Source of the DNA: Spirochaetia bacterium
GTDB taxonomy: Bacteria; Spirochaetota; Spirochaetia; DSM-2461
Assembly (NCBI GenBank): GCA_963666985.2
Contig: CAXXIA010000001.1
Span: 192,001 to 256,000, forward strand
DNA length: 64,000 bases
Direction: 5' to 3'
Position 1 is the stretch's first letter. Each line of letters opens with the position of its first letter. Below, in pieces: positions 34,728 to 63,964 of the stretch. The notes beneath the pieces were generated by a model. That model made no database searches, was not told the DNA's origin, and saw only the letters and a list, made by a program, of their open reading frames with translations. The translations under genes were made by a program, and so were the position numbers.

Positions 34728-34756
34728 TTGACATGGTTACATAGCCGGTATAGTAT
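34728..34756 (+). promoter_or_regulatory. sigma70-type promoter of dctPQM
   Basis: TTGACA-17-TAGTAT. Confidence 0.65.
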
Positions 34757-34768
34757 GAATGCCGATGA

Positions 34769-34795
34769 GAGAAACCGCTTACATATATATATCAT
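34769..34795 (+). promoter_or_regulatory. Island operator copy 1
   Basis: GAGAAACCGCTTACAT-ATATAT-ATCAT. Confidence 0.8.
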
Positions 34796-34985
34796 TAAGT
34801 CTTCTCTTCCGCTGCCGGATCGACGTGTCCGAAAGGCGGATGTCGGTTGACGGCAAAAAGCAATGGAAAAGACGTCGGCTCGGAATAACGGAATAAGCTT
34901 TTGTTTTATGGTGAAAAGTATAATTATCCCTGTTCTATGAAGGGGAAATTGTATAAAAAAAAACTCAAAAGGAAGAGGAGCAAAA

Positions 34986-36035
34986 ATGAAAAAAGGACTT
35001 TACATCACACTCGCATTGGTTCTTGTTTTCGCGTTTTTAACGGGTTGTGATAATAAGAAGGCTGAGGATACGTCTGATAAGGAGAAAAAGGTAAATCTTA
35101 CATTCGCCATGTATCTGCCTGATTTTGACGCCAGCACCAAGGACTGTGTTAAATACCTTGAAATGATCAAGGAAGCGACCGGCGGAACCGTTGATTACAC
35201 CTTGTATGCCGGCAGTCAGTTGTGTGCCGCCAACGAAGAACTTGACGCCGTGAGAAGCGGACTGGCCGATGTTGCTTTTTTCCCGGTTGCTTACGGCTCC
35301 GGCAACTTGCCTGAAAGCTTCCTTATGGAATATCCCGGCGTCAAATTTGTCAACGGAAAAGCCGCCTCCTATACCGTTATGGACTGGTTCAATCAGGTCC
35401 GACCCGAGGAACTCTCCGACTTCAAGCTTCTGTTTGCGCTGGGGCAGGGCAACGGCTGCGTTATGACGACCTTCCCTGTTGAAAAATTTGAGGATTTGGC
35501 CGGACATCAGATCCGTTCGGGCGACTCTCAGGCTCCCATTATTACGGCTTACGGAGCCACCCCGACCGTTATGGTGTTCTCCGAGGTTTATGAAGGTTTA
35601 AGAACAGGCGTTGTCGAGGGATTCTACGGGCTGGCTTGTGCCGGCAACAGTGTTAAGCTTTATGAAGTTACAGATTACGCCGTTAAAGATCCTTACTACA
35701 TGGGAACCTATATCATGGTTATGAATCAGGATGTCTGGAATTCTCTCTCTGAAGATCAGCAGACAGCAATCACAGAGACGACCGCCACCGCTTTTGAAGA
35801 GTTTCTCGCCGCCGGCAGAGATGCCGACGCGCAGGTTGCATACGACAATTTTAAAGCCAACGGCCTGACGGTCGTAGATTTTGATCAGGAAAACCTTGAG
35901 AAAATGATCGGTGCTTCCGGCTATTTGCAGGAAGATTATGCCGCCGGCCTTGATGCGCAGGGTTTTGACGGCACGGGCAACCTTGAGCTCTTCAAGAAGC
36001 TTGCGGAAAAGTACAACGCTGAATATGCCGACTGA
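34986..36035 (+). CDS. dctP: TRAP transporter substrate-binding lipoprotein DctP
   Basis: Lipobox LTGC; FEDLAGHQIR (conserved Arg), FSEVYEGLRTGVVEG, MNQDVWNSLSED. Confidence 0.9.
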   Translation: MKKGLYITLALVLVFAFLTGCDNKKAEDTSDKEKKVNLTFAMYLPDFDASTKDCVKYLEMIKEATGGTVDYTLYAGSQLCAANEELDAVRSGLADVAFFPVAYGSGNLPESFLMEYPGVKFVNGKAASYTVMDWFNQVRPEELSDFKLLFALGQGNGCVMTTFPVEKFEDLAGHQIRSGDSQAPIITAYGATPTVMVFSEVYEGLRTGVVEGFYGLACAGNSVKLYEVTDYAVKDPYYMGTYIMVMNQDVWNSLSEDQQTAITETTATAFEEFLAAGRDADAQVAYDNFKANGLTVVDFDQENLEKMIGASGYLQEDYAAGLDAQGFDGTGNLELFKKLAEKYNAEYAD

Positions 36036-36211: not shown

Positions 36212-36760
36212 ATGAAAAAATTTGTCTCAATGTTTTCCATGATGACCTCATGGTTAGCAAAGCTATCGGGAATCTTATTGTTTCTTATAAGCATTCTTGT
36301 ATGCGCCCATGTCATACTGCGCGGATTCTTTAACGCCGGTATACTCGGAACGTATGAATTAGTGCAATACGGTATGCTTGTCATTGTCTCGCTGACGCTT
36401 GCGGAAAACGAATTGACGGGCGGCAATATCATCGTCAATTTCGTTCTGGATAAAATGAAGCCTCGCACGGCCAGCGTTATCAGCATCATTATGTATTTTA
36501 TTACAATCATTTTTATGTCATACGTTCTTTACAATCAGGTCGGTATGATAGGAAGGAAGCTGGCCGACGGCTCAGTAACAGGTACGTTGGGCATACCTCA
36601 CTGGATTCTCGTCATCCTAATCTGCATCGGGCTTTTCTTCTTTGTCATCGCTTTTATCATCAGAGTCTACAACATGATTATAAATCACGGAAATATCGAG
36701 AATAAAAAGCTCTCTCGTGATGAAATAGCGGCCAATACCGAAATTAAATCCGAGTTTTAA
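36212..36760 (+). CDS. dctQ: TRAP transporter small permease DctQ
   Basis: Four TM helices, HVILRG, GTYELV; between dctP and dctM. Confidence 0.85.
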   Translation: MKKFVSMFSMMTSWLAKLSGILLFLISILVCAHVILRGFFNAGILGTYELVQYGMLVIVSLTLAENELTGGNIIVNFVLDKMKPRTASVISIIMYFITIIFMSYVLYNQVGMIGRKLADGSVTGTLGIPHWILVILICIGLFFFVIAFIIRVYNMIINHGNIENKKLSRDEIAANTEIKSEF

Positions 36761-36778: not shown

Positions 36779-38092
36779 ATGGACCCTGTAACAATAGGCA
36801 TTTTGATGCTTATCGGATTTGTTGTTTTTATGTTTCTCGGCCTCCCAGTTCCGATCTCAATGATGCTTTTTTCCGTTGTGGGAATGGTTTTAATAAAATC
36901 ACCCGCCGCCGCTTTTCAGGCGGTCGCTTCGGATATCTTCATAAACTTTGCGTCTTATACGCTTACGGTTGCGCCTATATTCGGCCTTATGGGATTTTTA
37001 GCCAGTTATTCGGGTATAGGAGAAAGCCTGTTTAACGCCGCCGACAAATTTATAGGTCATAAGCGAGGCGGTATCGCTTCTTCCGTTCAGGTAGCCAGCG
37101 CCATTTTCGGCGCCATCTGCGGCTCCATTCCCGCCACGATGGGTACGATGGTTACCGTCGCTTTGCCTGAAATGGAAAAGCGTCATTATAAACCGAGTCT
37201 TTCAACCGCCGCTATCGCCGCCGGTTCCTCGCTGGCCGTACTGATTCCGCCCAGCGCCACGATGATCATCTATGGCGTTACCGCGGAGGAATCCATAGGC
37301 AGGCTGTTTATGGCCGGCGTCTTTCCCGGCGTTCTCCTGATGTTATTCCAGATTGCCGCGATCTATATCGTTGTTAAACGGCATCCCGAATATGCGCCCA
37401 TGTCGGAAAAATCCACCTGGGCGGAACGCTGGAACGCGATTCTCAAGGGCGGACTTTTAGAGGTTATCATCATTTTCCTGCTGTCGATCGGCGGTATGTT
37501 CATCGGCTGGTTTACTCCGACCGAAGCTGCGTCCGTCGGAGCCATGGGCATGCTGATTATCGGCCTTGTTGAGCGGAAAATTAATTGGCAGAAGCTTATG
37601 ACCTGCCTTGTCGCTTCCGCCAAACTTGCCGCCATGGTTTTCTTCATAATCACCTGCGGTACACTGTTCGGCCGTATGTTCACGCTTTCCACGATTCCCT
37701 CGGCATTGGCGAACTTCGTAACAACACTCAATGTGGCTCCATGGGTTCTCATGGGCATTATCCTTCTGCTTTATTTTGTGCTGGGTATGTTTATAGACGG
37801 CATAGCGATCATTCTGATTACCGTCCCTATTTTTACGCCCATTTTGAGCGGTCTTGGCTACGATGCCGTCTGGTACGGCGTTCTGATCGTTTTGGTTCTC
37901 TGCCTCGGCGGCCTAACACCGCCAGTCGGACTCAACTGTTTCTATATGAAGGGATTTGCCAAGCATGTTCCGCTTTCCACGATTTTTTCAGGCGTTTGGC
38001 CGTTCGTCTTCTCGATTCTCCTGGCGATGATTGTCATCATGCTCTTTCCGGGGCTGGCCACATGGCTGCCGACGGCTCTTTACGGGGTTTGA
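36779..38092 (+). CDS. dctM: TRAP transporter large permease DctM
   Basis: FGAICGS, LIPPS, SIGRLFMAGVFPG, FTPTEAA, LTPPVGLN. Confidence 0.93.
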   Translation: MDPVTIGILMLIGFVVFMFLGLPVPISMMLFSVVGMVLIKSPAAAFQAVASDIFINFASYTLTVAPIFGLMGFLASYSGIGESLFNAADKFIGHKRGGIASSVQVASAIFGAICGSIPATMGTMVTVALPEMEKRHYKPSLSTAAIAAGSSLAVLIPPSATMIIYGVTAEESIGRLFMAGVFPGVLLMLFQIAAIYIVVKRHPEYAPMSEKSTWAERWNAILKGGLLEVIIIFLLSIGGMFIGWFTPTEAASVGAMGMLIIGLVERKINWQKLMTCLVASAKLAAMVFFIITCGTLFGRMFTLSTIPSALANFVTTLNVAPWVLMGIILLLYFVLGMFIDGIAIILITVPIFTPILSGLGYDAVWYGVLIVLVLCLGGLTPPVGLNCFYMKGFAKHVPLSTIFSGVWPFVFSILLAMIVIMLFPGLATWLPTALYGV

Positions 38093-38410: not shown

Positions 38411-39928
38411 TTACACTGTAAGCAGCTCAAAGCCCAGTATTTTACCAAGCCTGACCATTTGATTAAAACAGTCTCCGTAGACCAGCGGCGTGTGGTTGCC
38501 AACTTGGCTTAATTTATCGAAAAAATCATCGGAATCAACAACCTGGAAAATAACTCCCTCGGTACAATTCTGTTTGTCATAGCCAATACCGCAGACCACA
38601 GTCCCTCTGGCAATGAAAAGCTTGCCGCAGGTGGGATCGATTCGACACATGGTGATAGGTTGTCCTTTGTCTTGGTTGAAGTTATAGCGTATGGTTGCTC
38701 CCCAGCCGCTATAGGCAAACGAACGTATCGCATAGGAACCGTTAGGTTTATCGAATCCTTTCAATTTCCGATTGGGAACCGAATGCCAGGTAAGAACCAG
38801 GTTTTCCATATTTTGAAGCTTTTTCTCCACCTCTTTTTCATCAAAATTACCCATCTCATTGTTTTTGATCGGATTGGTAATGGTGTTCCCCATGTAAGGA
38901 GCGGATCGAGCCGTATTCGACAGCATTACCATGGAAAGGAGAGCCGGGATATCATATTCACAGGAGGAGGGGATACCATTTTCATTATTCAGCGAATGGT
39001 TGAGGCAGAACGTAAACTTTTCCTCATTGAATCTTCTGGTGGCGCAGATATCGAAACAGGGAGCGGTAAAGGCGTTGCAGCCGGTTTTTTCCATCAATTT
39101 GTTGATAAGGTAATGGGCTTTCAGTGAGGGATAGACATTCTCGGGCGTCATATCACATTCCTCTGCGCCTTCAATAAACTCATTCGTCAGTCTTTTGATT
39201 TTTGTTTCGTCTGTATCGTTTATGTTGGGCTCATCTTTTCCGGGAGCGGTCGGGTTTTCACCGCTTGGAACATTATGAAGCTGGTCGAAAAACTCATGAA
39301 TATTATAATAAATGAAGCGCACGCCTAATTTGTCACTGACATCATCCAGGGACAGAAAGGCGTCGATCATGCCCGGAGCCCTGCCTGAATTAAGACGGTT
39401 GAACGCCAGAACCCTGGTTTGAGAAAGAGCTTTGCGAACCCTGAGCGCTTTAATAACATCAACAGCATCGTCTATGGTCTGACAGGGATAAACTTCATAT
39501 CCCCTGGCCAGCAGTGAAGCCGTAGATACGGTGTTAAGGCATCTGCCCAGAACGATCATCGGTTTTTTATATTTCCGGGGGAATTCCAACAGTAAATCCG
39601 TTACGGCGCCCTTAAAAATGTACAGGTCAACCTGATCGCTGTCTTTTCCCACCAAATCGAGATCGGCATCGGTTACCAGGAAACTTTCATCATACTGAAA
39701 ATGAATCGGTTCCAGGATATTGGCTTCATCAGTCGGAACCGCGCTCATAACACTCTCTATAAATGATTTATGTTTTTCGTCGTTTGCCCGTAAATCGTGT
39801 TCCTTTTTCAGCTTTTCACCCTCTTCAAAGCGGCAGGGCCCTTCAAATACGTAATTGTGGTACAGGCTGAGCGTTACCGGTCTGACATTGAGTTTGATCC
39901 CGAGGGTTGTGTTGATTTTAAAATCCAT
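38411..39928 (-). CDS. L-fucose/L-arabinose isomerase-like protein
   Basis: SSCEYD, YMGN, LTWHS, GQPITMCR, NCTEG, GNHTPLVYGD; AAAGGA SD before ATG 39928. Confidence 0.7.
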   Translation of the reverse strand: MDFKINTTLGIKLNVRPVTLSLYHNYVFEGPCRFEEGEKLKKEHDLRANDEKHKSFIESVMSAVPTDEANILEPIHFQYDESFLVTDADLDLVGKDSDQVDLYIFKGAVTDLLLEFPRKYKKPMIVLGRCLNTVSTASLLARGYEVYPCQTIDDAVDVIKALRVRKALSQTRVLAFNRLNSGRAPGMIDAFLSLDDVSDKLGVRFIYYNIHEFFDQLHNVPSGENPTAPGKDEPNINDTDETKIKRLTNEFIEGAEECDMTPENVYPSLKAHYLINKLMEKTGCNAFTAPCFDICATRRFNEEKFTFCLNHSLNNENGIPSSCEYDIPALLSMVMLSNTARSAPYMGNTITNPIKNNEMGNFDEKEVEKKLQNMENLVLTWHSVPNRKLKGFDKPNGSYAIRSFAYSGWGATIRYNFNQDKGQPITMCRIDPTCGKLFIARGTVVCGIGYDKQNCTEGVIFQVVDSDDFFDKLSQVGNHTPLVYGDCFNQMVRLGKILGFELLTV

Positions 39929-40093: not shown

Positions 40094-40120
40094 ATGATAA
40101 ATAAATGTAAGCGTTATCTC
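40094..40120 (-). promoter_or_regulatory. Island operator copy 2
   Basis: Minus strand GAGATAACGCTTACAT-TTATTT-ATCAT. Confidence 0.8.
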
Positions 40121-40131
40121 TTATATCCTGC

Positions 40132-40173
40132 ATATTGTACTCCTTTTCCCGTTATGTCAATCAATTGTTACAT
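40132..40173 (-). promoter_or_regulatory. Promoter of the isomerase-like gene
   Basis: TTGACA (40160-40155), -10 TACAAT/CAATAT at 15/17 spacing; 20-mer ATGTAACAATTGATTGACAT shared with 49379-49398. Confidence 0.6.
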
Positions 40174-40744: not shown

Positions 40745-40773
40745 TTGACTTCCAATTTGAACAAGTATAGAAT
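40745..40773 (+). promoter_or_regulatory. Promoter of catabolic operon A
   Basis: TTGACT-17-TAGAAT. Confidence 0.65.
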
Positions 40774-40774
40774 C

Positions 40775-40801
40775 AGGGAAGCGCTTACATAATAGTATCA
40801 T
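40775..40801 (+). promoter_or_regulatory. Island operator copy 3
   Basis: AGGGAAGCGCTTACAT-AATAGT-ATCAT. Confidence 0.8.
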
Positions 40802-40973: not shown

Positions 40974-42938
40974 ATGGGAAAATTTGATCATGTGCTGTCA
41001 CCGTTTACAATCGGCAATGTTAAGCTGAAGAACAGGATTGAGCTGGCTCCTGCCTGTTACATGCTCGCCAGTCACGACGGGTATGTTACGCGGGAAATGG
41101 TTGCCTATTACCAGAATCTGGCGCGCGGCGGCGCCGGGATTATTACCATCGGTGAGTCTCCGATCGATCTTGAGTATGCCAGCGGCCATGAATTTCAGCT
41201 GAATCTGAACGATCCCAAGGTGATTAACGGCCTGAGCGTTATAGCCGAGAACGTTCATCGCTATGGAGCCAAGCTGTCGATAGAGATGACGCATTGCGGC
41301 CGTTACGTACTGAACAACAAGCAGACCATCGGCCCGAGCAATATCCCTGCTGAGATGGAAATACTCAAGGCAAGAAGGGAAGGCCGAAAGGTGAGACAAG
41401 TGATCGAGATGGACCAGGATATGATCGACAGAGTCGTCGAGCATTATGCCATCGCGGCCCATAACTGTCAGAGAGCAGGCTTGGAAATGATTATGATTCA
41501 TGCGGCTCACGGACATCTCATCCCCCAGTTCTTATCACCGATGACCAATAAACGGACGGACCGCTACGGCGGGAGCCTCGAAAACAGGGCGAGATTTGCC
41601 GTCGAGATTCTTAATGCCATTCGGGCCAGGGTTGGAAACAAGCTGGCGATTGAATGGCGTATCAGTGCCAACGAGCTTGTACCCGACGGACTGGTTGAAG
41701 AGGATACCATCGAATTCGTAAAGCTTATTGAAGACAAAATCGATTTGCTGCATGTTTCGGCGGGTCTTTTGAATGAGTCTCGCGTTATCCCTCATATGAT
41801 TCAGCCGACATATTTCCCGCATTGCTACAATGTGCACCGTGCCGAGAAGCTGAAAAAGGCTCTGAAGATACCGGTCGCTGCGATTGGGTCCATACACGAT
41901 ATGAGCGAGGCCGAGGAGGTTGTCGCCACGGGAAAGGCCGACATCGTTGCCATGGCCAGGGCCATCCTCGTGGATCCCGAGATTGTGAATAAAGCCAGAG
42001 CGGGTCTGGAAGAAGATATACGGCCTTGCTTGCGCTGCCATAATTGCAACAAATTGACGGCTGCTTTTTATCCGATTCGCTGCGCGGTTAATCCTATTCT
42101 GGGCCGAGAGTTGACATATATCCCGCTGGGTAAAGCCGAGACGAAGAAAAAGGTTGTAATCGTCGGCGGCGGCCCCGGCGGCATGCAGGCGGCGCTGACG
42201 GCCTCCCAAAGAGGACACGATGTTGTCCTGTTTGAAAAAAACGACAAACTCGGCGGTAATCTGCTTTTGGCGGCGGGCCTTAAAATCAAGGCGGATATGA
42301 GAGAATATCTGGCTTGGCTGATCCGTCAGGCTCAAAAAGCCGAAGGTGTTCTCTTGAAGGTGGGAACGGAAGCCACCGTTGATAATGTGAAAGCCGAAAA
42401 GCCGGACGCCATTATCGTCGCGGCCGGTTCCGAACCCCTTATCCCGCGTATCCCCGGATTTGACGGTGAAAATGTCGTCTGGGTCGGTGATGTCGATGCC
42501 GGATGCGCCGCGGTCGGACAAAATGTCGTTATTGCGGGAGGCGGCGCAACGGGTGCCGAGGCGGCACTTCAACTGGCCAAGGACGGCCATAATGTAACGA
42601 TGATCGATATGCTTGATTTTGGTACGCTGACTCCCGAATACCCCAGAGGACTTTTATTCCTGCTGGAGGATTATAAGGTTGATATGCGATTTGGCGTCAA
42701 GCTTGAGGAAATTACCGAGAAAGGCGTTACGGTTCTTGATTCCAAATGGAATCGGGTTGAGATTCCGGCGGATACGGTTGTCCTCTCCTTCGGATTTAAG
42801 CCGCGTACGGCGATGGTTGAAGCGTTTATGGCTTTGGAATCGCCCGTTACAAGGGTTTACCCGGTCGGCGACTGCCTGAAACCGCAGAACATCAAGGATG
42901 CCGTCCACGGTGGGTTCAACACGGCGGTGGAAATTTAA
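40974..42938 (+). CDS. OYE-family NADH:flavin oxidoreductase with FeS and FAD domains (2,4-dienoyl-CoA reductase/BaiCD-like architecture) #1
   Basis: LKNRI, ARGGAG, HAAHGHL..QFLSP..NKRTDRYGGSLENR, CLRCHNC..C, VGGGPGG, AGGGATG. Confidence 0.9.
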   Translation: MGKFDHVLSPFTIGNVKLKNRIELAPACYMLASHDGYVTREMVAYYQNLARGGAGIITIGESPIDLEYASGHEFQLNLNDPKVINGLSVIAENVHRYGAKLSIEMTHCGRYVLNNKQTIGPSNIPAEMEILKARREGRKVRQVIEMDQDMIDRVVEHYAIAAHNCQRAGLEMIMIHAAHGHLIPQFLSPMTNKRTDRYGGSLENRARFAVEILNAIRARVGNKLAIEWRISANELVPDGLVEEDTIEFVKLIEDKIDLLHVSAGLLNESRVIPHMIQPTYFPHCYNVHRAEKLKKALKIPVAAIGSIHDMSEAEEVVATGKADIVAMARAILVDPEIVNKARAGLEEDIRPCLRCHNCNKLTAAFYPIRCAVNPILGRELTYIPLGKAETKKKVVIVGGGPGGMQAALTASQRGHDVVLFEKNDKLGGNLLLAAGLKIKADMREYLAWLIRQAQKAEGVLLKVGTEATVDNVKAEKPDAIIVAAGSEPLIPRIPGFDGENVVWVGDVDAGCAAVGQNVVIAGGGATGAEAALQLAKDGHNVTMIDMLDFGTLTPEYPRGLLFLLEDYKVDMRFGVKLEEITEKGVTVLDSKWNRVEIPADTVVLSFGFKPRTAMVEAFMALESPVTRVYPVGDCLKPQNIKDAVHGGFNTAVEI

Positions 42939-49420: not shown

Positions 49421-49431
49421 TATGAAACAAA

Positions 49432-49458
49432 GAGGAAACGCTTACATAATAATATCAT
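49432..49458 (+). promoter_or_regulatory. Island operator copy 4
   Basis: GAGGAAACGCTTACAT-AATAAT-ATCAT. Confidence 0.8.
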
Positions 49459-50978: not shown

Positions 50979-51029
50979 TCTGAGTTCGGTATTTCGGTTT
51001 GTAATGTTATCAATATGGAGGCGGTTGGC

Positions 51030-55056: not shown

Positions 55057-55788
55057 ATGTCGATATATAAAATTACACCGCTGCATTTGGGTGATATTAC
55101 TCGCCCGAAATCCAACATGATCCAAGACTACGAGGGAGCGGAGGTTTTGGATTTTCCCCTGATCGCTTACTACCTCGAGGGAGAACATAAGATTCTTGTG
55201 GACACCGGAGGCAGTCACCCCGAAAGCGAGCAGGGGAAAAAGGCGGCGCCCTATAAAAGGCCTCCCGAGCAGGAGCTGGACGCCGCGCTGAAGGCCGTCG
55301 GCGTTGATCCGGCTGATATAGACACGGTGATACTGACGCATCTCCATTGGGACCATGCGGCGAATAATCATCTGCTCCCGAACGCGAAATTAATGTGCCA
55401 GAAGATCGAGTACGAATCATTGTTTGATCCGTACACCCCTAAAAAAGGCTATGACACGGACAGTGTCCTTAAATTCACGTACGAACTGCTGGACGGAGAT
55501 CAAAAGGTTTTTGACGGGGTTTCCGTGATGCTTACGCCAGGCCATACGCTGGGAATGCAGAGCGTTATCGTCGATACCGAAATCGGCAAGGTCGTTTTGA
55601 CGGGCGACATGGTTACTCTCAGGGAGAGCCTCAGCTACGACCCGCCGAGAGCCAATGCCCTTCTCTACGATGATTCGGCTATCGGGATTATGCGGGAAAG
55701 CCTTAAAAAAATACTGCCTATTTCTCGGAATATCCTTCCCGGTCATGATCCGTCCGTATTTTCACCGGGAATGGGCCTGACGAAATAA
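55057..55788 (+). CDS. Metallo-beta-lactamase-fold hydrolase, AHL-lactonase/4-pyridoxolactonase-like
   Basis: ILVDTG, THLHWDH, TPGHT, TGD, PGHD. Confidence 0.85.
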   Translation: MSIYKITPLHLGDITRPKSNMIQDYEGAEVLDFPLIAYYLEGEHKILVDTGGSHPESEQGKKAAPYKRPPEQELDAALKAVGVDPADIDTVILTHLHWDHAANNHLLPNAKLMCQKIEYESLFDPYTPKKGYDTDSVLKFTYELLDGDQKVFDGVSVMLTPGHTLGMQSVIVDTEIGKVVLTGDMVTLRESLSYDPPRANALLYDDSAIGIMRESLKKILPISRNILPGHDPSVFSPGMGLTK

Positions 55789-55840: not shown

Positions 55841-56356
55841 ATGAATGAAAAGAAACAAGGAATCAAGGACAGGCCGGCAGAGGAGCTGGGCAGGCATATC
55901 ATCCAGTGGGATCCTGACATATCTTTGTGTACCGGCTGCGGTGCATGCGAGATTGTCTGCAGTCTTATCCACGAAGGTGTCAGCGGGTCACGCTCGCGCC
56001 GTATTTTTTTCGAGCACGACAGTGTTCAGCTGATGCACAAGGTTTATGCCTGCCAACAGTGCCTGGATCATCCGTGCTATAACGCCTGCCCGAAAAAAGA
56101 CAGCGCCATGTGCATCGATCCGGAAACGGACATCGTTTACGTCAATCAGGACGCGTGCATCGGCTGCGGCCTGTGTGTCAGGGCTTGCCCGTTCGAGCCT
56201 AAGCGCCTGCAGCTTAACAGGAATAAAAAGGCCGTAAAGTGCGATTTATGCCGCGGCCGGGAAAACGGACCGGCCTGTATCGAATACTGTCAGTGCCTGG
56301 CTATAGGGATGAGCGATGATGAACCGCCCGTGCCCGGCGTCATCGTAAAGGATTAG
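55841..56356 (+). CDS. 4x[4Fe-4S] electron-transfer subunit (AOR partner) #2
   Basis: CTGCGACEIVC, CQQCLDHPCYNACP, CIGCGLCVRACP, KCDLC..PACIEYC. Confidence 0.9.
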   Translation: MNEKKQGIKDRPAEELGRHIIQWDPDISLCTGCGACEIVCSLIHEGVSGSRSRRIFFEHDSVQLMHKVYACQQCLDHPCYNACPKKDSAMCIDPETDIVYVNQDACIGCGLCVRACPFEPKRLQLNRNKKAVKCDLCRGRENGPACIEYCQCLAIGMSDDEPPVPGVIVKD

Positions 56357-56368: not shown

Positions 56369-58438
56369 ATGTCGGAACAGAATACTTTACCAAGTTACGG
56401 ATATGTCGGAAAAATCGCATGGATTGATCTGACAAGCCGCTCTTTTAACATGATCCCGACAAGCGATTACGCGCCGAAATTTATCGGGGGCCGCGCCATC
56501 GCCACGAAAATATATTGGGATGTCACAAAGCCCGGCATGAAGGCTCTTGATCCTGAAAATCCGCTGATGTTCATGACGGGCCCCGTCGGTGCTACCGGTA
56601 TTCCGACCGGCGGAAGGACGGCCGTGTGCGCCATGGCTCCCAATAATCTGCCCGAACAGTTTTGCTGGGGTAATATCGGCGGCTGGTTCGGCGCAAAGCT
56701 GAAATTTGCCGGTGTTGACGGAATTGTTCTCGTCGGAAAGGCCGATGAACCGGTTTACGTTGTGATCGACGACGGGGAAATCACGTTTCAGGCCGCCGGG
56801 GATCTGTGGGGCACTCTGACGCACGACTGCCAGGAAAAGCTGCGCGCCGTCTACGGAGGTGACTCCGTGAGTGCCGTAATCGGTCCGGCCGGCGAAAATC
56901 TCTGCCGCAACGCCAGCATCAACACCTCAAACGACAACGTGGCGGCCAAGGCGGGCTTCGGCGCGGTGATGGGCTCGAAAAAACTCAAGGCCGTTGTTGT
57001 ACGAGGCACGGGAGATGTTCGCCCCTACAGCGTCGAGCAGGTTTTAAAGCTTCGGAAAACAATGGGCGATCCGCAGCGTAAGGCCAATCCGGTCGAGCAT
57101 CTGGATCGCTGCGCGTTCAGGGCCCATATCAATTTCGAAACACCACCCGGCGCCGTTAAAAAGGCCAATGTGTCGTGCAGTCATGGCTGCAACATGCGCT
57201 GCAGTCTCTTTGTGCTGGATACGAAATCAGCGTTTCCGCGCAAATATACCAATCAGGTGCACAAATGCATCGGAGTTTACGCATTTCAAATGACGGAAGA
57301 CTGCGGTATGTCGCCGACCATGTTTTTCCATACGGAAAAAAATCATAACCAGGCTTGTCTTGGACAGGGAGCCCAGGTTCCGCCGCCGCCGGACACCTCC
57401 GACCCTCATCTGGAGGAGTTGACGACCCGTCGACGCGGCAGCGATATGGACTTCTGGGACGGTGATTACGACCGAGGCAACGTGATCAACGACTTGTGCA
57501 CGCAGTACGGCATCGATAAATGGGACGTTATCGTGTGGCTGATGACCTGGCTTGTGATGGGAAAGCGTACGGGCGTTTTAAAAGATGTGGACCTCGGTAT
57601 GGAGATTGATCCCGGCAGCGAGGAGTTCATGAAACACCTCTTGGAAATAATCACGTACCGAAAGGGCTATTGGGGCAACCTCTTCGCGGAGGGCATGGCC
57701 CGTACGATCCGTACGCTCGGACAGGAAAAGTACGGCGATACGATCTACAAAGGTATCGTATCCAACGTCGTTCCCGGTTTGCAGCTGGATATCCCGATCA
57801 GCTTCGCGTCCTCGTGGGGTCATTCTTTTCACTGGCAGGGGCGCGGCTTCCAAGGCAGCACACCGCCGGGAGGTTATCTTTCGGCGACGCTGATGCTCAT
57901 GACCAACACGCGCGATGCCCAAACGAATTCCCACGTCCACGGGACACTCGATTATATGAAGGAAACGATGGATGCCCATAAAGCGTGTCGGAACAGGAAG
58001 GTCGCCGAAAACGCCTTTATGGGAGAGATCAAAGCGGAAATGAAGGAGTGTGTGACATGCTGCGACCTTCAAAGCCCGCAGATCTACTGGCCGGACATGG
58101 AGTGCCGGATGCTGGAGGCGGCTACCGGCGTCAAAATGTCGGTTGACGAACTGTATCTGGCCTGCGAGCGCTCTAAAAATCTCTTCAGGGCTATTTTAAT
58201 GCGTGATTCCGATCGTTCAAGGGCTCAGGAAGAGCCTGAGGCGTACAGACCTCTGCAATACCCGGACTGTGAAGGACAGGTTGTCGAACCCGAAGAATTT
58301 TCAAGGCTTGTGGACCTGTATTACGACGTGTGGGGATGGGATAAGGAAACCGGCTGGCCTACCCGTGAGACGTGGCTTCGGTGCGGGCTGGAGGATGTGG
58401 CCGAGGAAATGGAAAAAATCGGCAAGCTCCCGTCCTGA
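56369..58438 (+). CDS. Aldehyde:ferredoxin oxidoreductase-family W/Mo enzyme, atypical (YdhV/BamB-like) #2
   Basis: GYVGKIAWIDLT, FIGGR, LKFAGVDG, IGPAGEN, GAVMGSKKLKA, GWDKETGWPT; clear paralog of 43543-45615. Confidence 0.9.
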   Translation: MSEQNTLPSYGYVGKIAWIDLTSRSFNMIPTSDYAPKFIGGRAIATKIYWDVTKPGMKALDPENPLMFMTGPVGATGIPTGGRTAVCAMAPNNLPEQFCWGNIGGWFGAKLKFAGVDGIVLVGKADEPVYVVIDDGEITFQAAGDLWGTLTHDCQEKLRAVYGGDSVSAVIGPAGENLCRNASINTSNDNVAAKAGFGAVMGSKKLKAVVVRGTGDVRPYSVEQVLKLRKTMGDPQRKANPVEHLDRCAFRAHINFETPPGAVKKANVSCSHGCNMRCSLFVLDTKSAFPRKYTNQVHKCIGVYAFQMTEDCGMSPTMFFHTEKNHNQACLGQGAQVPPPPDTSDPHLEELTTRRRGSDMDFWDGDYDRGNVINDLCTQYGIDKWDVIVWLMTWLVMGKRTGVLKDVDLGMEIDPGSEEFMKHLLEIITYRKGYWGNLFAEGMARTIRTLGQEKYGDTIYKGIVSNVVPGLQLDIPISFASSWGHSFHWQGRGFQGSTPPGGYLSATLMLMTNTRDAQTNSHVHGTLDYMKETMDAHKACRNRKVAENAFMGEIKAEMKECVTCCDLQSPQIYWPDMECRMLEAATGVKMSVDELYLACERSKNLFRAILMRDSDRSRAQEEPEAYRPLQYPDCEGQVVEPEEFSRLVDLYYDVWGWDKETGWPTRETWLRCGLEDVAEEMEKIGKLPS

Positions 58439-58486: not shown

Positions 58487-58795
58487 ATGATATTGCTTCA
58501 TGTGAAATACAAGTTAAAGCCCAATGTGCGCGATGAATTCATCGCCAAGCTGAATAAGCACGACTTGGCCGGCCAGTATAGAAAGTTATCTGGAAATATG
58601 AGTTACGAATACTTTGTCCCGATTGCCGAATCCGACGTTTTGTTCGTAGTCGACGCCTGGAAAGACGAGGCCTCATTCGAAGCCCATCTGACATGCCCGG
58701 CGGCCGACATCCTCGGTCCGCTTAAAAAGGAGTTTGTTCTGGAATCGGAGGTTAAGCGATTCGAGCTCCCGGACAGTCGGTTTCAGACATTGTGA
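58487..58795 (+). CDS. ABM-domain (YgiN/LsrG-like) protein
   Basis: 102 aa; KYKLKP..RDEF, GN.SYEY, DAWKDEASFEAH. Confidence 0.75.
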   Translation: MILLHVKYKLKPNVRDEFIAKLNKHDLAGQYRKLSGNMSYEYFVPIAESDVLFVVDAWKDEASFEAHLTCPAADILGPLKKEFVLESEVKRFELPDSRFQTL

Positions 58796-58851
58796 TTCTT
58801 AGTAAGGCAAACACACGTTCGATGCCCTGATGCTTAATTAATGAGGTGGAT

Positions 58852-60234
58852 ATGTCAGTTGAAGATTTGAGTTACAGCCAAAAAATCGCGCAGTTTTACG
58901 TGAATGCGGACATCGACGCGATTCCGCAGCGCGTTTTCGAACATACGAAGAATGTCATCGCCGACTGGGCCGGATGCGGCATCGGCGGGGCGGATATCGA
59001 ATCGACAAAAATGGTAAAGGAAGTCTTTTTGTCGGATCAGGGTCGACATGAGTGCACTGTGTTCTGCGGCCAGAAAGCCTCTGTGGAGCATGCCGCGTTT
59101 ATCAACGGTGCGGCCAGCCACGGACTGGAAATGGACGATGCAAGCTACGATGCCGGCGGTCATCCGGCCGTTGTTATCCTGCCGGCCGCCATGGCCATGG
59201 CTGAGACTGCGAATTCCAAGGGAAAGGATTTTCTCCTGGCGGTTATCTGGGGCTACGATATGATGACGCGTGTCGGTCGCGGTGTCGTACCGGACAACTG
59301 CTTTGAGCGCGGATGGCATCCCACTGCCGTGTGCGGGATATTCGGGGCGACTGTGGCGGCGGCCTGGCTGTTAAAGCTGGATGCGTTTCAGATTGCCAAT
59401 GCGTTGGGAATCGCCGGCGGTTTTGCATCGGGGAATTTGGAATGTTATGCCGACGGTTCGCTGACAAAACGACTCAATCCCGCCAATGCGGCGATGGGAG
59501 GGGTTAACGCGGCGCGTTTGGCGGCGGCCGGCTATACGGGTCCGAAGTGGGTGTTTGAGGGTAAACACGGATTCTTCCGCTCTTACACGGACAATCCGAC
59601 GCCGGAACGCATGCTTGAAAAGCTGGACACCAGCGAATTCCCCATCGAAATCGCATCTTTCAAGCCGTATGCGTGTTGCCGCTATAATCATGCGCCGATC
59701 GATTCGATCCTGAAAATCATGAGCGATAACAGCCTTAAGGCAGACGATATCGAAAAAATTGTTGTCGATACCTGCAACATGGCCATCAGGGCCGTCGTGG
59801 AACCGGCACAGATTAAGTACAATCCGCCCAACGTGGCTGCGGCGCAGTTCAGTCTGCCGTACACGGCGACATGCGCGGCTCTCTTCGGTGATGTATCCGT
59901 GGAACAGTTTACGGATGAGAAGCTGATCGATCCCTCCGTTAAAGGCTTTATAAACAAGGTTGAGATGGTTCACACCGGCGAGATGGATCAGTATCTGCCG
60001 GATATCTTCGCGGCATTCGTTACGATTCGCACTAAGGACGGCAAGGCTTATACGCAGCTGACGAAGTTCAGTAAGGGCGATCCCGAAAACCCGATGACAA
60101 AGAAGGATATAAAGGAAAAGTTTCTCTCGCTTTCTCAGATGACCGTCAGCGTCAACAAGGCGCGGAAAATTTACGACACGATTATGGACATCGACAATCT
60201 CTCCACGATCAAGGATCTGACAAGGCTTTTATAG
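58852..60234 (+). CDS. MmgE/PrpD-family protein #3
   Basis: SHGLEMDD...GHP, RGWHPT, TKRLNPA, VFEGKHGF, FKPYACC, KGDPENP. Confidence 0.9.
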   Translation: MSVEDLSYSQKIAQFYVNADIDAIPQRVFEHTKNVIADWAGCGIGGADIESTKMVKEVFLSDQGRHECTVFCGQKASVEHAAFINGAASHGLEMDDASYDAGGHPAVVILPAAMAMAETANSKGKDFLLAVIWGYDMMTRVGRGVVPDNCFERGWHPTAVCGIFGATVAAAWLLKLDAFQIANALGIAGGFASGNLECYADGSLTKRLNPANAAMGGVNAARLAAAGYTGPKWVFEGKHGFFRSYTDNPTPERMLEKLDTSEFPIEIASFKPYACCRYNHAPIDSILKIMSDNSLKADDIEKIVVDTCNMAIRAVVEPAQIKYNPPNVAAAQFSLPYTATCAALFGDVSVEQFTDEKLIDPSVKGFINKVEMVHTGEMDQYLPDIFAAFVTIRTKDGKAYTQLTKFSKGDPENPMTKKDIKEKFLSLSQMTVSVNKARKIYDTIMDIDNLSTIKDLTRLL

Positions 60235-60289: not shown

Positions 60290-61057
60290 ATGGCTAGACT
60301 GAATAATAAGGTTGCACTGATTACCGGAGCGGGCTCAGGCATGGGCCGCGCATCTTCGCTGCTTTTTTCAAAGGAGGGCGCCAAGATTGTCGTCGTCGAT
60401 TTCAACGAGGAGAACGGCAGAAAAGTTGTTGAGGAAGTCAAGGTCCAGGGCGGCGAGGCCGCTTTTGTCTTTGCCGACGTTTCCAAGGGTGAGTATTGCA
60501 AGGGTGCCGTTGATTTTGCCGTCGAGACGTATGGAAAGCTCGATGTCGTATTCTGTTGCGCCGGTGTGGCTCAGAAAGCTGCGATGATTTGGGATCTGGA
60601 TGAGAGCGAGTTTGACAAGATGATGAATATCAATACGAAATCAAGCTGGCTGATGGCAAAGTATTCCGCATTGGAGCTTAAGAAAAATAACGGTTCGTTA
60701 ATTCTCATCGGCTCCACGGCGGCCGTTCGGCCCCGTGCTACACAAGGTTTGTACGGCGCGTGCAAGGCGGCCAACAACAATTTGGCGATCGGCTTGGCGG
60801 CGGAGCTTGCGCCCGAGGCGCGCTGCAACTGCATCAATCCGGGCCCCACGGCTACGCCGATGCTCCCGACCTTCGTGCAGAGTTATAACGATAATGTGGC
60901 CGACGAAATCGCCGGAAGCACTCTCTTAAAACATCTTGTTGATCCGATGGACATTGCCAATGCCGCGCTGTTTTTCGCCTGTGACGAATCCAGGAGCGTT
61001 ACGGGGGTGTCTATGCTGGTTGATTCCGGAGCGGACAAGGCGCGCGGCAAGAACTGA
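60290..61057 (+). CDS. Short-chain dehydrogenase/reductase #2
   Basis: TGAGSGMG, YGACK, RCNCINPG, VTGVSMLVDSG. Confidence 0.9.
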   Translation: MARLNNKVALITGAGSGMGRASSLLFSKEGAKIVVVDFNEENGRKVVEEVKVQGGEAAFVFADVSKGEYCKGAVDFAVETYGKLDVVFCCAGVAQKAAMIWDLDESEFDKMMNINTKSSWLMAKYSALELKKNNGSLILIGSTAAVRPRATQGLYGACKAANNNLAIGLAAELAPEARCNCINPGPTATPMLPTFVQSYNDNVADEIAGSTLLKHLVDPMDIANAALFFACDESRSVTGVSMLVDSGADKARGKN

Positions 61058-61095
61058 TCCATTGTGTAAACGGGTGTGGAATCGGACCATATGAG

Positions 61096-61917
61096 ATGAT
61101 AACCATAAAAGAAGCGGAACAGGGCAATGTCTACGAGGACTGCAGAGTCGTTGAATTCAATAAAAAAAACGGCTTTGTCACGATGACCGAAACCAAAAGA
61201 AAGGTCATCAAAGAGGTGTCGTTGAAGATTTATGTCAATGAACAGGAGCTCATTCCGGTGATTTGCCTGAACCGGCAGTACAAGGAGCTTGCTCTCGGAC
61301 TGCTGTACAATGAAGGTGTTATCCATTCGATGGACGATATCAAAAGTATCGAATACGGTGAAAAGCCGACGGCCGTCAGGATTCTCCTCAGGGAAGGTCT
61401 CGAGCCGGATCGGCATGAGACCCCGGGGAATATCACATCCGAATTCGGCAAAAGCCAAATGTTCCTAAATCCGTTTAAAAAGAATCCATCTAACACGATC
61501 GCCGACGAAAGAACATATTCGGCCGGTGCTCTTTTAGAGGAGATGGATGCGTTTGTTTCCATGTCCGAGATTTATAATTCGGTCGGCGGAACCCACAGCG
61601 TAAAGTTTTGTTCGGGTGATTATGCATTGCTTATCGACGACATCAGTCGGCACAACTGTTTCGATAAGTTAACAGGCATTCTTCTTGAAGAAAACAAGCT
61701 CGATTTGGCCGTCGGCGGCATCTTGTACGTCAGCGGAAGGCTGACGTCTGAAATGCTGATGAAAATGATGCGTTTGGGGCTGTCCGTCGCCATATCGAAA
61801 TCTTCACCGACATCAGCGGCGCTGAAGCTGGCACGTGAGTTCCATATAACGATACTCGGCTACGTTAAGGGCGATAACGGCATTATTTATTCATGTCCGG
61901 AACGGATTATCCCGTAG
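61096..61917 (+). CDS. fdhD: FdhD-family cofactor accessory/sulfurtransferase-like protein lacking the usual loop Cys
   Basis: ELALGLLYNEG, GGTHS, DISRHNCFDKL, SGRLTSEM, SKSSPT. Confidence 0.8.
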   Translation: MITIKEAEQGNVYEDCRVVEFNKKNGFVTMTETKRKVIKEVSLKIYVNEQELIPVICLNRQYKELALGLLYNEGVIHSMDDIKSIEYGEKPTAVRILLREGLEPDRHETPGNITSEFGKSQMFLNPFKKNPSNTIADERTYSAGALLEEMDAFVSMSEIYNSVGGTHSVKFCSGDYALLIDDISRHNCFDKLTGILLEENKLDLAVGGILYVSGRLTSEMLMKMMRLGLSVAISKSSPTSAALKLAREFHITILGYVKGDNGIIYSCPERIIP

Positions 61918-61996
61918 AGTCGGCCGGTGTAGGCCAAGGTATAGGCCAATCTGAATTAGCGTTGAAAGGAGAGCGCGTTGAAACGCGTTATATATT

Positions 61997-63964
61997 ATGG
62001 AAGCTTTAAAATACCCCCATCTTTTTGAACCGATTTCGGTGGCCGGCAGTTTTTTTGCCAACAGAATCATCGCTTCCGCCACCGGTCATCTCGATACCAT
62101 CGGCAGCCGTGAGAGCGGATATTATCATACGCCCCAAAACGCCGCCTATTATGAGCGTCTGGCCGCCGGCGGGGCCGGCATGGTCACCGTGGGAAGCTGC
62201 TACGTAGACAAGAAATACGGCGACTTCGGCAACTATCACGTTTTTTTGGACGATCCCCTATCGATCCACTCGTTTTACAGCATCGCCAATTCCATTACCC
62301 GTTACGGCGCCGTGGCCTCCGCGGAGATTATCCATTGCGGTCTCTACGCCAACAGAGCAACCGGCGAGCCGTCTTACGGACCTGTCGCCATGGAAGACAA
62401 CGGCCGGCCCGTCTTTGAAATGGACGATGCTTATATCATCGCGCTCATTGACCGATTCGCCAATGCAGCCGCTTTTGCCAAAAAATGCGGTTTCGGCATG
62501 GTCACCATTCATGGCGGTCACGGCTGGCTCATCTCCCAGTTCGTCAATCCGGCGCTCAATACCCGAAAGGACAAATGGGGCGGCGCACCGATAGAAAATC
62601 GTGCGCGACTGGCCGTCGAAATCTGTAAGGCCATCCGCAAAAAGACGGGTCCGAGGTTTCCCATAGAGATGCGCATCAGCGGCTCGGAGTGCTACTCGGG
62701 CGGTTACGGGATAGATGAGGGTATCGCCCTGGCCAAACAATTGGACGGCTACGCCGACATGATCCACGTTTCGGCCGGAAGCCACGAACGGGACGAGGTT
62801 TTTACGATTACACACCCCAGCATGTTTCTGGAGGAAGGCTGCAACGCAGTCTACGCGGCCGAAATTAAAAAAAACATCTCGCAGTCGAAGGTCGTCACAG
62901 TTGGGGGGTTCAGCGAACCCGCAATCATGGAGGAGATTCTCGCTTCCGGGCAAGCCGATTTCATCGCAATGGCACGTTCTCTGATAGCCGATCATGATCT
63001 TCCCAACAAGTTCCGTCTGGGGCGGGAGGATGAAATCATCAAGTGCATGCGATGTCTGCACTGTTTTTCAAACGTTCAGACCTACGGTAAGTTCTATTGC
63101 GCCATCAATCCCACGACGGGTCATGAATATGAAGAAAAGTTTGATATCCCCGCCGCGACGAGAAAGAAGGTCCTGGTTGTCGGCGGCGGGATCGGCGGCA
63201 TGCAGGCGGCACTGACGTGCGCCGAGCGCGGGCACGAGGTTACCCTGTGTGAAAAAACATCTCGTCTCGGCGGTGCCTTGCGCTGCGAGGAAAAGGTTCC
63301 GTTCAAAAAGAACTTGGACCGTTATTTAAACGCGCAGGAGAAGGCCGTGATGAACAACCCGGCGATCACGGTGAGGCTGAATACAGCCGTTACGCCGGAG
63401 CTTGCCAAGAGCATCGGCGCCGACGTTCTCATTGCCGCTTTGGGCGCCCGTCCCGTCAAACCGCCTATCAAGGGCATCGACGGCAAAAACGTCATATCGG
63501 CAGAAGACATCTATTTAAATCCGGAGAGGACCGGCGGCTCATGCGTTATTCTCGGGGGAGGGCTTGTGGGCATAGAGCTCGGAATCTTCCTCGCGCAGAT
63601 GGGCAAAAAGATCACCGTCATTGAGATGATGGACGCGCTTAATCATGGCGGTAATCATCTGCATGCCAAGGGACTGGCCGTCCAGATCGAAAAATACGGG
63701 ATAGACGTTAATCTCAACACCAAGGCGCTTGAGATTACAGATAAAGGTGTGATCGGCGAAAGCGACCGAGAACAACGATTGTATGAGGCCGAAACGGTTA
63801 TTTATGCCGTCGGGCAAAGTCCGCTCCAAGAGGAAACAATGGCCCTTCACGACTGTGCGCCGGAATATCATGTACTGGGCGACTGCGTGACGCCCAGAAA
63901 CATAGCCAACGCGACGAGTGCCGCCTATGAGATATCGCGTATGATCGGGAGAAACGGCCTTTAA
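61997..63964 (+). CDS. OYE-family NADH:flavin oxidoreductase with FeS and FAD domains #2
   Basis: ANRI, AAGGAG, HGGHGWL..QF..N.RKDKWGG, CMRCLHC..C, VGGGIGG, LGGGLVG. Confidence 0.9.
   Translation: MEALKYPHLFEPISVAGSFFANRIIASATGHLDTIGSRESGYYHTPQNAAYYERLAAGGAGMVTVGSCYVDKKYGDFGNYHVFLDDPLSIHSFYSIANSITRYGAVASAEIIHCGLYANRATGEPSYGPVAMEDNGRPVFEMDDAYIIALIDRFANAAAFAKKCGFGMVTIHGGHGWLISQFVNPALNTRKDKWGGAPIENRARLAVEICKAIRKKTGPRFPIEMRISGSECYSGGYGIDEGIALAKQLDGYADMIHVSAGSHERDEVFTITHPSMFLEEGCNAVYAAEIKKNISQSKVVTVGGFSEPAIMEEILASGQADFIAMARSLIADHDLPNKFRLGREDEIIKCMRCLHCFSNVQTYGKFYCAINPTTGHEYEEKFDIPAATRKKVLVVGGGIGGMQAALTCAERGHEVTLCEKTSRLGGALRCEEKVPFKKNLDRYLNAQEKAVMNNPAITVRLNTAVTPELAKSIGADVLIAALGARPVKPPIKGIDGKNVISAEDIYLNPERTGGSCVILGGGLVGIELGIFLAQMGKKITVIEMMDALNHGGNHLHAKGLAVQIEKYGIDVNLNTKALEITDKGVIGESDREQRLYEAETVIYAVGQSPLQEETMALHDCAPEYHVLGDCVTPRNIANATSAAYEISRMIGRNGL

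Follow-up and report, generated by a model that had tools for sequence, protein, structure and literature searches.

Genes of the cluster

The stretch analysed here is a 64,000-nucleotide window (positions 192,001 to 256,000 of contig CAXXIA010000001.1, assembly GCA_963666985.2) from a Spirochaetia bacterium, whose genome assembly spans 4.86 Mb, is 93% complete and has a GC content of 0.51. Its subject is a cluster of 23 genes at 34,728 to 63,964, which the original prediction, made from the sequence alone, had read as an anaerobic catabolic island under a single regulator. All 23 genes are confirmed, with their open reading frames (ORFs) where they had been placed (Table 1). Pfam and NCBIfam profile searches of the 23 proteins, with the NCBIfam cut-offs applied, back each family that had been named, including a tripartite ATP-independent periplasmic (TRAP) transporter, two members of the aldehyde:ferredoxin oxidoreductase (AOR) family with iron-sulfur (FeS) partners, two reductases of the old yellow enzyme (OYE) type, three MmgE/PrpD proteins, two short-chain dehydrogenases/reductases (SDRs), a PrpF-type isomerase, a LeuC/LeuD-type hydratase, a lyase of the isocitrate lyase (ICL) family and a lactonase-like metallo-β-lactamase-fold (MBL) protein. 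The isomerase-like gene is the exception. No metabolic enzyme of the cluster reaches an NCBIfam cut-off for a single function.

No coenzyme A (CoA) ligase, CoA transferase, dioxygenase or B12 mutase family was found among the 23 cluster proteins and 28 other long ORFs of the window. The PF01642 mutase family was also without a match in the one host genome (0/1), and the same search was positive in 8 of 14 control genomes. The predicted route, which would be free of CoA, independent of O2 and would end in isomerisation, hydration and cleavage, is supported.

Table 1. Features of the cluster and of the unit that follows it (window positions; window-equivalent positions for the second unit).
Feature	Position	Strand	Basis or remark
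Promoter (sigma-70-type, -35 at 34728) and LacI-type operator (34769-34794) of dctPQM	34728..34794	+	Ortholog site in L013/L015/L026
DctP1, TRAP solute-binding protein	34986..36035	+	NF037995 above cut-off; carboxylate Arg motif (QIRS) kept
DctQ1	36212..36760	+	PF04290
DctM1, followed by terminator-like hairpin 38151-38182	36779..38092	+	TIGR00786 above cut-off
Fucose-isomerase-like protein, 505 aa from ATG at 39928; accessory, common operator	38411..39928	-	Look-alikes, homologue names
Operator (40095-40120) and promoter of isomerase-like gene	40095..40173	-	Matrix, leave-one-out
Promoter and operator (40775-40800) of operon A	40745..40800	+	Ortholog site in L027, L031, L037
OYE_A, long FMN/FeS/FAD flavoenzyme	40974..42938	+	Pfam/NCBIfam; His at usual proton-donor Tyr position
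FeS_A, 4Fe-4S partner of AOR_A	43049..43543	+	Pfam
AOR_A, divergent AOR-family enzyme	43543..45615	+	PF02730, PF01314; 55% identical to AOR_B
PrpD_A, MmgE/PrpD protein	45612..46979	+	Three conserved carboxylate-binding residues lost
SDR_A, NAD-type SDR	47033..47821	+	NF005559 above cut-off; top single-domain PDB match TsaC
LacI-family repressor	48034..49029	-	Pfam/NCBIfam; 84-85% identity to Peptococcaceae cluster orthologs
Promoter region and operator (49432-49457) of operon B	49379..49457	+	Ortholog site in L013, L014, L015, L044
PrpD_B1, core MmgE/PrpD, His111 and Tyr157, two-base type as IDS epimerase	49548..50978	+	Alignment
PrpF-family isomerase	51015..52178	+	Nearest solved structure 3g7k, 3-methylitaconate isomerase, E 2e-110
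LeuC1, large subunit of maleate-type hydratase, pocket motifs altered	52197..53462	+	NCBIfam, motif comparison
LeuD1, small subunit, GSSRPGA replacing GSSREHA	53597..54088	+	TIGR02087 above cut-off
ICL/PEP-mutase-family C-C lyase; KRCGH loop, Phe184/Ile234/Pro236, Phe at E. coli Arg241	54150..55034	+	Alignment
MBL1, AHL-lactonase-like metallo-hydrolase, lower-core member	55057..55788	+	NCBIfam, locus comparison
FeS_B, 4Fe-4S partner of AOR_B	55841..56356	+	Pfam
AOR_B, divergent AFOR-family enzyme with CxxGCxxxC	56369..58438	+	Pfam, fold match
ABM-domain protein	58487..58795	+	PF03992
PrpD_B2, MmgE/PrpD, Phe at second-base Tyr position, one-base type	58846..60234	+	Pfam, alignment
SDR_B, NAD-type SDR	60290..61057	+	Pfam/NCBIfam
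FdhD-like sulfurtransferase	61096..61917	+	PF02634
OYE_B, long flavoenzyme, Trp at usual proton-donor Tyr position	61997..63964	+	Pfam/NCBIfam
Second unit: PrpR-like activator, sigma-54-like site, OYE remnant, dctPQM2, leuCD2, MBL2	64797..73722 (L001 6797..15722)

Regulation

A repeat search recovered one operator motif, AA(n)CGCTTACAT-n-ATCA, placed directly behind a TTGAC -35 box at four cluster promoters, those of dctP, the isomerase-like gene, operon A and operon B. Scored over the whole host genome (9,713,902 positions), the operator matrix gives these four sites 34.6-39.1 bits, while the next best site reaches 21.0 bits. In leave-one-out scoring, each held-out site was equalled by 3 or 4 of the 9,713,902 positions, with the site itself and the training sites counted among them. 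The stretch at 40154-40173 is an exact 20-nucleotide copy of the operon B promoter region. The operator is also predicted in Peptococcaceae clusters, ahead of the orthologs of operon A, operon B and dctP (27-38 bits; three genomes). No site of at least 14 bits was found in loci L022-L024 of the Oscillospiraceae genome G044, whose LacI protein is 56% identical, and a generic promoter scan, which found 14 sites where 17.9 were expected, gives no evidence by itself. Taken together, the scores support a single predicted LacI-type regulon that spans all four transcription units, as the original prediction had proposed, and whose operator is found nowhere else in the genome. Two perfect LacI-type palindromes elsewhere in the host (C1:965763 and C2:921080) lack the downstream ATCA element and likely belong to other LacI regulons.

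The cluster had been suspected to continue beyond the window, and it does so for about 10 kb, to window-equivalent position 73,722, as a second unit. Its PrpR-like activator gene lies on the plus strand, its OYE remnant is 181 amino acids long, its DctP carries Glu in place of the usual carboxylate Arg, and leuCD2 is 63-64% identical to leuCD1. A sigma-54-like site at 66,850 is one of 21 such matches genome-wide, and RpoN is encoded in the host genome. Because this site is accompanied by no LacI operator in the matrix scan of the unit, the second unit is predicted to be a separate regulon under sigma-54/PrpR control. Elsewhere in the window, at 17329-21225, a lipoyl-synthase-like radical SAM gene lies opposite two tandem MiaB/RimO-like radical SAM genes.

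Conservation and origin

Syntenic clusters occur in Peptococcaceae metagenome-assembled genomes, where gene order is kept and the proteins are 70-91% identical; the AOR, PrpD, PrpF and OYE homologs co-occur as anticipated. Within the host phylum the picture is different: PrpD_B1 is present in 1 of 401 genomes, the host being that one, against 7 of 401 in the family of G044 and 4 of 112 in the class of G041. Among 40 kin genomes, no full-length relative of AOR_B was found, and the matches in 13 of them cover the N-terminal domain only. A quick tree of 44 rows places the window PrpD_B1 within a clade of 100% support whose named members are all Bacillota. Since this key gene was found in none of the other 400 host-phylum genomes sampled and nests among Bacillota, the cluster was probably acquired by transfer from anaerobic Bacillota (Firmicutes). 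Base composition gives no island signal (2-kb GC of 0.44-0.56 against 0.51 for the genome), so the term "island" holds for phylum-level distribution and not for composition. Plasmid searches returned distant relatives only, at up to 54% identity. The host genome carries three FlaA-family genes, in line with a spirochaete.

Of 36 metagenome loci with related genes, 21 were annotated after exclusion of short or redundant ones. These annotated loci and genome regions were merged by hand into 26 locus groups, leaving out AOR-only loci and five further redundant or short loci of the 21. The counts are biased, because PrpD_B1 or AOR searches served to recruit the groups and contig ends truncate many of them. 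Among the 26 groups, PrpF is present in 26, PrpD_B1 in 25, LeuC in 24, LeuD and the lyase each in 23, and MBL1 in 19, followed by PrpD_B2 (13), the AOR clade (11), LacI (8), each OYE (7), PrpD_A (6) and the isomerase-like gene (0). The conserved core is the MmgE/PrpD-PrpF-LeuCD-lyase-lactonase set, and the AOR, OYE, SDR and transporter genes vary. MBL1 accompanies the lower core and not the redox genes (19/26 against 11/26 for the AOR clade), and the transporters beside the core differ by locus (TRAP, DASS, ABC, sodium:solute and TTT types). A pyruvate:ferredoxin oxidoreductase adjoins the core in two groups, while accessory flavoproteins that resemble vinylphenol reductase (fumarate-reductase-like) occur in five. 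Three PrpR-linked cassettes (G143, G352 and L071) have no redox genes. In G041, G043, G044 and the window, the AORs (80-89% identity), the SDRs (70-91%) and the three MmgE/PrpD proteins (58-86%) are kept together.

Several further arrangements were seen around the core and its relatives. Genes for CocE, cyclase, DUF6282 and racemase proteins turn up repeatedly as accessories, and a 227-amino-acid protein of no known family (L056 1055-1738, with relatives in L070, L079 and L094) accompanies a CocE/NonD hydrolase in four of the groups. Beside the simple cassette of G352 (L086 8133-15311) are genes resembling those for a BCCT transporter, histidine ammonia-lyase, HisD and PrpR. An 80-kb region of G1225 (L094-L097) holds the core cassette together with a pair each of AOR-clade and LigM/DesA-like genes, a NuoF-like module, a corrinoid protein and some five molybdenum (Mo) enzymes that resemble acetylene hydratase; five AOR-clade genes are present in that genome. 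Small SDR, FeS, AOR and LysR units without the core (L018, L020, L021, L103 and L104) are probably stand-alone alcohol-to-acid modules. Related lyase and LeuCD modules are found on aerobic actinobacterial, haloarchaeal and rhizobial plasmids (L130, L132, L133 and L136), some of them with PrpF and with up to four MmgE/PrpD genes.

The proposed free-acid core

The characterised substrates of MmgE/PrpD proteins are, in the accessible text of PMC12290011, all 1,4-dicarboxylates substituted at C2 or C3, one of them an N-substituted succinate, and the isomerases of this family work with a His plus a Tyr. Both catalytic residues are present in PrpD_B1, a Phe replaces the Tyr in PrpD_B2, and PrpD_A lacks the two-base set; measured against the conserved residues given there, PrpD_A has one His changed to Gln, another to Arg, and a changed Lys. 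All three proteins score far below the NCBIfam PrpD cut-offs. The PrpF-family protein is likewise below the PrpF and OMA tautomerase cut-offs, and its best PDB match is 3g7k. MBL1 scores 75.6 bits against the 325 required for 4-pyridoxolactonase (NF047925), which is its second NCBIfam match.

The lyase scores 265 against a PrpB cut-off of 354, and 2,3-dimethylmalate lyase is its third PDB match. It carries Phe at the position of PrpB Arg241 and Ser at that of Arg270, although an Arg at 271 makes the 270 call uncertain; in PrpB, we take these two arginines to serve the third carboxylate. The KRCGH loop is kept, and so, by alignment, is the triad Phe186/Leu234/Pro236, which the available text of PMC13692135 gives as the basis of methyl specificity in PrpB. 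A methyl pocket without Arg241 fits the cleavage of a 2-methyl-3-R-malate into pyruvate and an acid that lacks a third carboxylate, while the Arg retained in the LeuD loop points mildly against the absence of a third carboxylate. Canonical motifs are found for LeuCD in G143 and G352, and for PrpF in G143, G352 and L071; compared with these, the PrpF, LeuC and LeuD motifs of the window clade have all changed together. This joint change suggests that the substituent on the substrate of the window clade is not the same, and is probably bulkier or of higher polarity.

From these features, the core probably takes a free 2,3-disubstituted C4 diacid, or its lactone, through to pyruvate. MBL1 would open the lactone, and the MmgE/PrpD proteins would epimerise or eliminate. 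PrpF would then shift the double bond to give a 2-methyl-3-R-maleate, LeuCD would hydrate it, and the lyase would cleave the product into pyruvate and R-CH2-COO-. Upstream of the core, two SDR and AOR pairs would oxidise two CH2OH groups to carboxylates, with the two OYEs spending part of the electrons.

Redox enzymes, transporter and isomerase-like protein

Both AORs carry the AFOR_N and AFOR_C domains and the FeS cysteine motif. A predicted model of AOR_B, which is weak (mean predicted local distance difference test score of 60) and confirms the family only, matches nine significant PDB chains at 17-23% identity. The two proteins score 277 and 232 against a YdhV-type cut-off of 868, and their group, to which more than 120 full-length proteins are related at an identity of at least 42%, has no close solved member. 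The AORs are true members of the family, remote from every solved one. With a ModA-family match and molybdenum cofactor genes in the host genome, and no tblastn match there to TupA or TupB, Mo is more likely than tungsten to be the metal of these predicted enzymes.

Both SDRs are NAD-type, and the best single-domain PDB match of SDR_A, TsaC, presumably oxidises an aryl-CH2OH. Against the cut-offs of 750 for bilirubin reductase and 825 for BaiCD, OYE_A scores 410 and 418 and OYE_B 355 and 367; Tyr is the usual proton donor in OYE-type enzymes, and both window proteins have replaced it. The best PDB matches of DctP1 (4n6d, 7nr2, 4pgn, 4nap and 4p56; E 1e-27 to 1e-20) are proteins that we take to bind aromatic monocarboxylates. 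A strong hairpin between dctP1 and dctQ1 (window 36077-36108) possibly raises DctP over the membrane subunits. Elsewhere in the host genome two loci look catabolic, one in which a TRAP system and an amidohydrolase-like gene accompany Mo enzymes (C2:1243773-1255745) and one that is an OYE-TRAP-OYE unit (C2:849652-856654).

The isomerase-like gene stands under the common operator, as noted above, but outside the conserved set, and no Pfam, NCBIfam or PDB match was found for it, so that membership of the L-fucose isomerase family is not confirmed; the name comes from language-model (Atlas) look-alikes and the names of homologues only. No match was found in five cluster-bearing genomes, and G178 has two relatives at 36% identity on other contigs. 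The fucose-isomerase-like family (L108-L127) reaches up to five copies per genome and is present in 26 of 301 genomes of the G044 family. In several of 20 loci of this family, the family member adjoins TRAP, OYE, PucR-like or, we presume, SufS-like genes. It may be that these proteins are sulfur- or FeS-dependent enzymes rather than sugar isomerases.

Relation to known pathways

No pathway with this gene set is described in the literature searched, which left most subscription papers and supplements outside, and to that extent the original claim of novelty stands. The lower half, however, has a precedent, because it closely parallels part of the nicotinate fermentation of Eubacterium barkeri and because the best PDB match of its PrpF is 3g7k. 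The lower part of that fermentation runs through Mii, DmdAB and Dml. At the family level, both systems use a PrpF-type isomerase, a LeuCD-type hydratase and an ICL-family lyase on free acids. The window cluster differs in having no B12-dependent 2-methyleneglutarate mutase and, among the 23 proteins searched, no xanthine-dehydrogenase-type hydroxylase, nicotinate dehydrogenase or enamidase; it adds three MmgE/PrpD proteins, a lactonase, two AORs, two SDRs and two OYEs, and its pockets are remodelled. Membership of the E. barkeri pathway was rejected for lack of the mutase and of the nicotinate dehydrogenase and enamidase in the cluster.

The 2-methylcitrate cycle (PrpC, PrpD or AcnD/PrpF, PrpB) shares four families with the cluster, as well as the PrpB methyl triad and, in the downstream unit, a PrpR-like activator. 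The window cluster has no methylcitrate synthase, and membership of the cycle was rejected as the PrpB, PrpD and PrpF equivalog cut-offs are missed and Arg241 is absent. The pseudomonad itaconate/methylsuccinate cluster (Ict, Ich, Ccl, Mcd, Msi), as far as the available text of PMC12290011 describes it, also has a two-base MmgE/PrpD isomerase, a lactonase and branched C4 diacids, but works with CoA esters in aerobic hosts, whereas the window cluster has no CoA enzyme. The window AORs share domains, FeS cysteines, an FeS partner and the fold with the AOR/WOR family (AOR, FOR, WOR5, WOR83, BamB and YdhV), yet form a separate group far below the YdhV-type cut-off. Lignan metabolism (gut Ber/Edl; aerobic PinZYXWVU) likewise combines SDR alcohol oxidation with flavin reduction on a C4 linker. 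It is unlike the cluster in that the gut pathway, in the accessible part of 10.1101/357640, leaves the linker uncut, and the Novosphingobium route, in that of PMC12997858, relies on decarboxylation and a dioxygenase homologue, PinX of pinoresinol catabolism being a decarboxylase.

Candidate substrates

The original prediction had favoured a ring or lactone compound, and of those it listed vitamin B6 appears to be the best stoichiometric fit to the enzyme count. Our leading reading is that the substrate is a bis(hydroxymethyl) N-heteroaromatic, that is vitamin B6 or 4-pyridoxate, to which we give a probability of roughly 0.3. In vitamin B6, two adjacent ring carbons each bear a CH2OH group, and the compound forms a lactone. 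Its conversion would follow pyridoxine + 4 H2O -> pyruvate + 3-hydroxy-4-oxopentanoate + NH3 + 4[H]. This balance takes four oxidations and two reductions together with a single C-N elimination and a single hydration, and an acyloin would remain for the isomerase-like protein.

Aerobic B6 degradation (PLDH, 4-pyridoxolactonase) likewise has two side-chain oxidations. PLDH and PDLA, known enzymes of B6 breakdown, are members of the SDR and MBL families according to the available text of bioRxiv 10.64898/2026.01.20.700305; unlike that pathway, the cluster has AORs and OYEs instead of a ring oxygenase, and MBL1 misses the pyridoxolactonase cut-off. A distant aerobic locus with lyase, LeuCD and MmgE genes also contains a hydantoinase, a cysteine hydrolase and two Asp/Glu-racemase genes. 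Another distant aerobic module presumably holds a racemase-like and a cyclase-like gene, and the neighbours of these two modules suggest N-heterocycles. The B6 reading thus draws slight backing from the TsaC match, the DctP1 match set, the families shared with the aerobic enzymes and the amidohydrolase and racemase neighbours.

A number of observations weigh against B6. The balance sheet was drawn up after the gene list had been seen. No cluster enzyme, MBL1 included, reaches a B6-pathway family cut-off, pyridoxal 4-dehydrogenase is absent from the 28 PDB matches of SDR_A at E<=1e-36, and no B6 salvage or transport gene was seen in the annotated related loci, where no family-level search was made. 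The upper modules vary between loci, the AOR query used gave no match of this clade in the core-bearing genomes G203, G055 and G178, and the isomerase-like gene, to which the acyloin would fall, is beside the core in none of the 26 groups. Some neighbours point instead to phenolics (the LigM/DesA-like genes and acetylene-hydratase-like Mo enzymes of G1225, and the flavoproteins of five groups). We know of no citable precedent for reduction of a hydroxypyridine ring by an OYE, and B6 is a trace nutrient. In the literature searched, subscription titles mostly lying outside it, no matching pathway was found for anaerobic B6 degradation or for anaerobic cleavage of lignans or diferulates. The complete proposal is that B6 is degraded independently of O2 and CoA, with AORs oxidising two aryl aldehydes, OYEs dearomatising the hydroxypyridine, MmgE/PrpD proteins acting as C-N lyase and epimerase, and a nicotinate-like, pyruvate-forming end, and that this route passed from anaerobic Bacillota to the spirochaete; it is slightly more doubtful than the substrate assignment taken by itself.

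A plant phenolic with a 2,3-disubstituted C4 linker, such as a lignan, a lignin β-β fragment, an 8-8' diferulate or an aryl-paraconate, is possible, though we hold it less probable than B6. The OYEs would reduce a benzylic ether or arylidene bond, SDR and AOR would oxidise two CH2OH groups, and the core would cut the linker to an arylpropionate and pyruvate or arylpyruvate. In G1225 the core is surrounded by several Mo enzymes, a corrinoid protein and a pair of LigM/DesA-like genes, which agrees with this, as do AOR-clade genes near corrinoid or methyltransferase genes in L019 and L021 and the non-canonical pocket motifs of PrpF, LeuC and LeuD. The G1225 Mo enzyme that was tested is closest to acetylene hydratase, as catechol dehydroxylases are in the available text of PMC7028382, and the gut pinoresinol reductase Ber is described in that of 10.1101/357640 as fumarate-reductase-like, as are the accessory flavoproteins of five groups. 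Mo-dehydroxylase-like neighbours are nevertheless limited to one of the 26 groups, the demethylase components of L021 have no tblastn match in the host genome, and secoisolariciresinol dehydrogenase ranks only 26th of the 28 PDB matches of SDR_A. The small methyl pocket kept in the lyase speaks against a symmetrical bis(arylmethyl)malate, and this alignment makes symmetrical lignan cleavage less likely.

It is also conceivable, if rather improbable, that a small branched compound without an aromatic ring, be it a lactone, a diol or a diacid, is fermented free of CoA through citraconate- and citramalate-type intermediates. Candidates would be paraconates, itaconate, methylsuccinate and itatartarate, and also branched sugar acids or polyols, 2-C-methylerythritol among them. 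A LacI protein as regulator, with a fucose-isomerase-like gene under its operator, would suit such a compound, and the simpler PrpR-linked cassettes have the same core families without redox genes, with the canonical LeuCD or PrpF motifs given above. A 2-hydroxyacid dehydrogenase is adjacent in three of the 26 groups, and, in the accessible text of PMC12290011, no fermenters of itaconate are known so far. This reading would leave unexplained, however, why there are two AORs plus two OYEs, the pocket remodelling seen in the window clade and the DctP1 match set. The isomerase family is multi-copy and often lies beside transporter, flavoenzyme and SufS-like genes.

Another N-heterocycle with the methyl/R pattern is unlikely, the candidates being tetrapyrrole-derived maleimides or pyrrolinones (hematinic acid, ethylmethylmaleimide) and alkylpyridine acids. 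The rings of heme and chlorophyll each give a 2-methyl-3-R-maleate skeleton. The Arg kept in the LeuD loop and the recurring CocE, cyclase, DUF6282 and racemase accessories are in keeping with such a substrate, and the OYEs match the long bilirubin reductase model, but at 410 and 355 against its cut-off of 750; the lyase lacks Arg241 and the window cluster has no amidohydrolase.

Equally unlikely is a bundle of modules under one repressor, in which alcohol and aldehyde oxidation as electron source, OYE sinks and a diacid funnel would each handle different compounds. SDR, FeS and AOR units do stand alone in the five loci named above, with four copies in G041, the core lacks the AOR in 15 of the 26 groups as sampled, and PrpF sits apart in three Peptococcaceae genomes. 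On the other side, G041, G043, G044 and the window all retain both AORs, both SDRs and the three MmgE/PrpD proteins together, conservation of the operator extends to each of the three orthologous promoters, and contig ends truncate many of the sampled loci. A furan or pyrone, which the original prediction had also listed, fits poorly since the core needs a 2,3-disubstituted C4 diacid and these rings would be expected to yield linear ones, and for phthalate a CoA-free reduction of the benzene ring by an OYE seems implausible.

Implications

On the evidence of its genes and predicted operator sites, the cluster is a real and conserved regulon for a putative CoA-free anaerobic route, of which no description was found in the literature searched. 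Its predicted operators delimit a defined set of genes for an anaerobic catabolic pathway. As the unstudied AOR group, the three differently wired MmgE/PrpD proteins and the remodelled PrpF-LeuCD-lyase set are all tied to one pathway, a single ligand screen could assign several families. On the plainest reading, the cluster would be a CoA-free route for itaconate-type acids, for which fermenters are, in the available text of PMC12290011 (2025), not yet known. If the substrate is a lignan or diferulate, the cluster would represent an anaerobic way to cut the β-β links of lignin, and if it is vitamin B6, it would fill a gap in anaerobic vitamin turnover.

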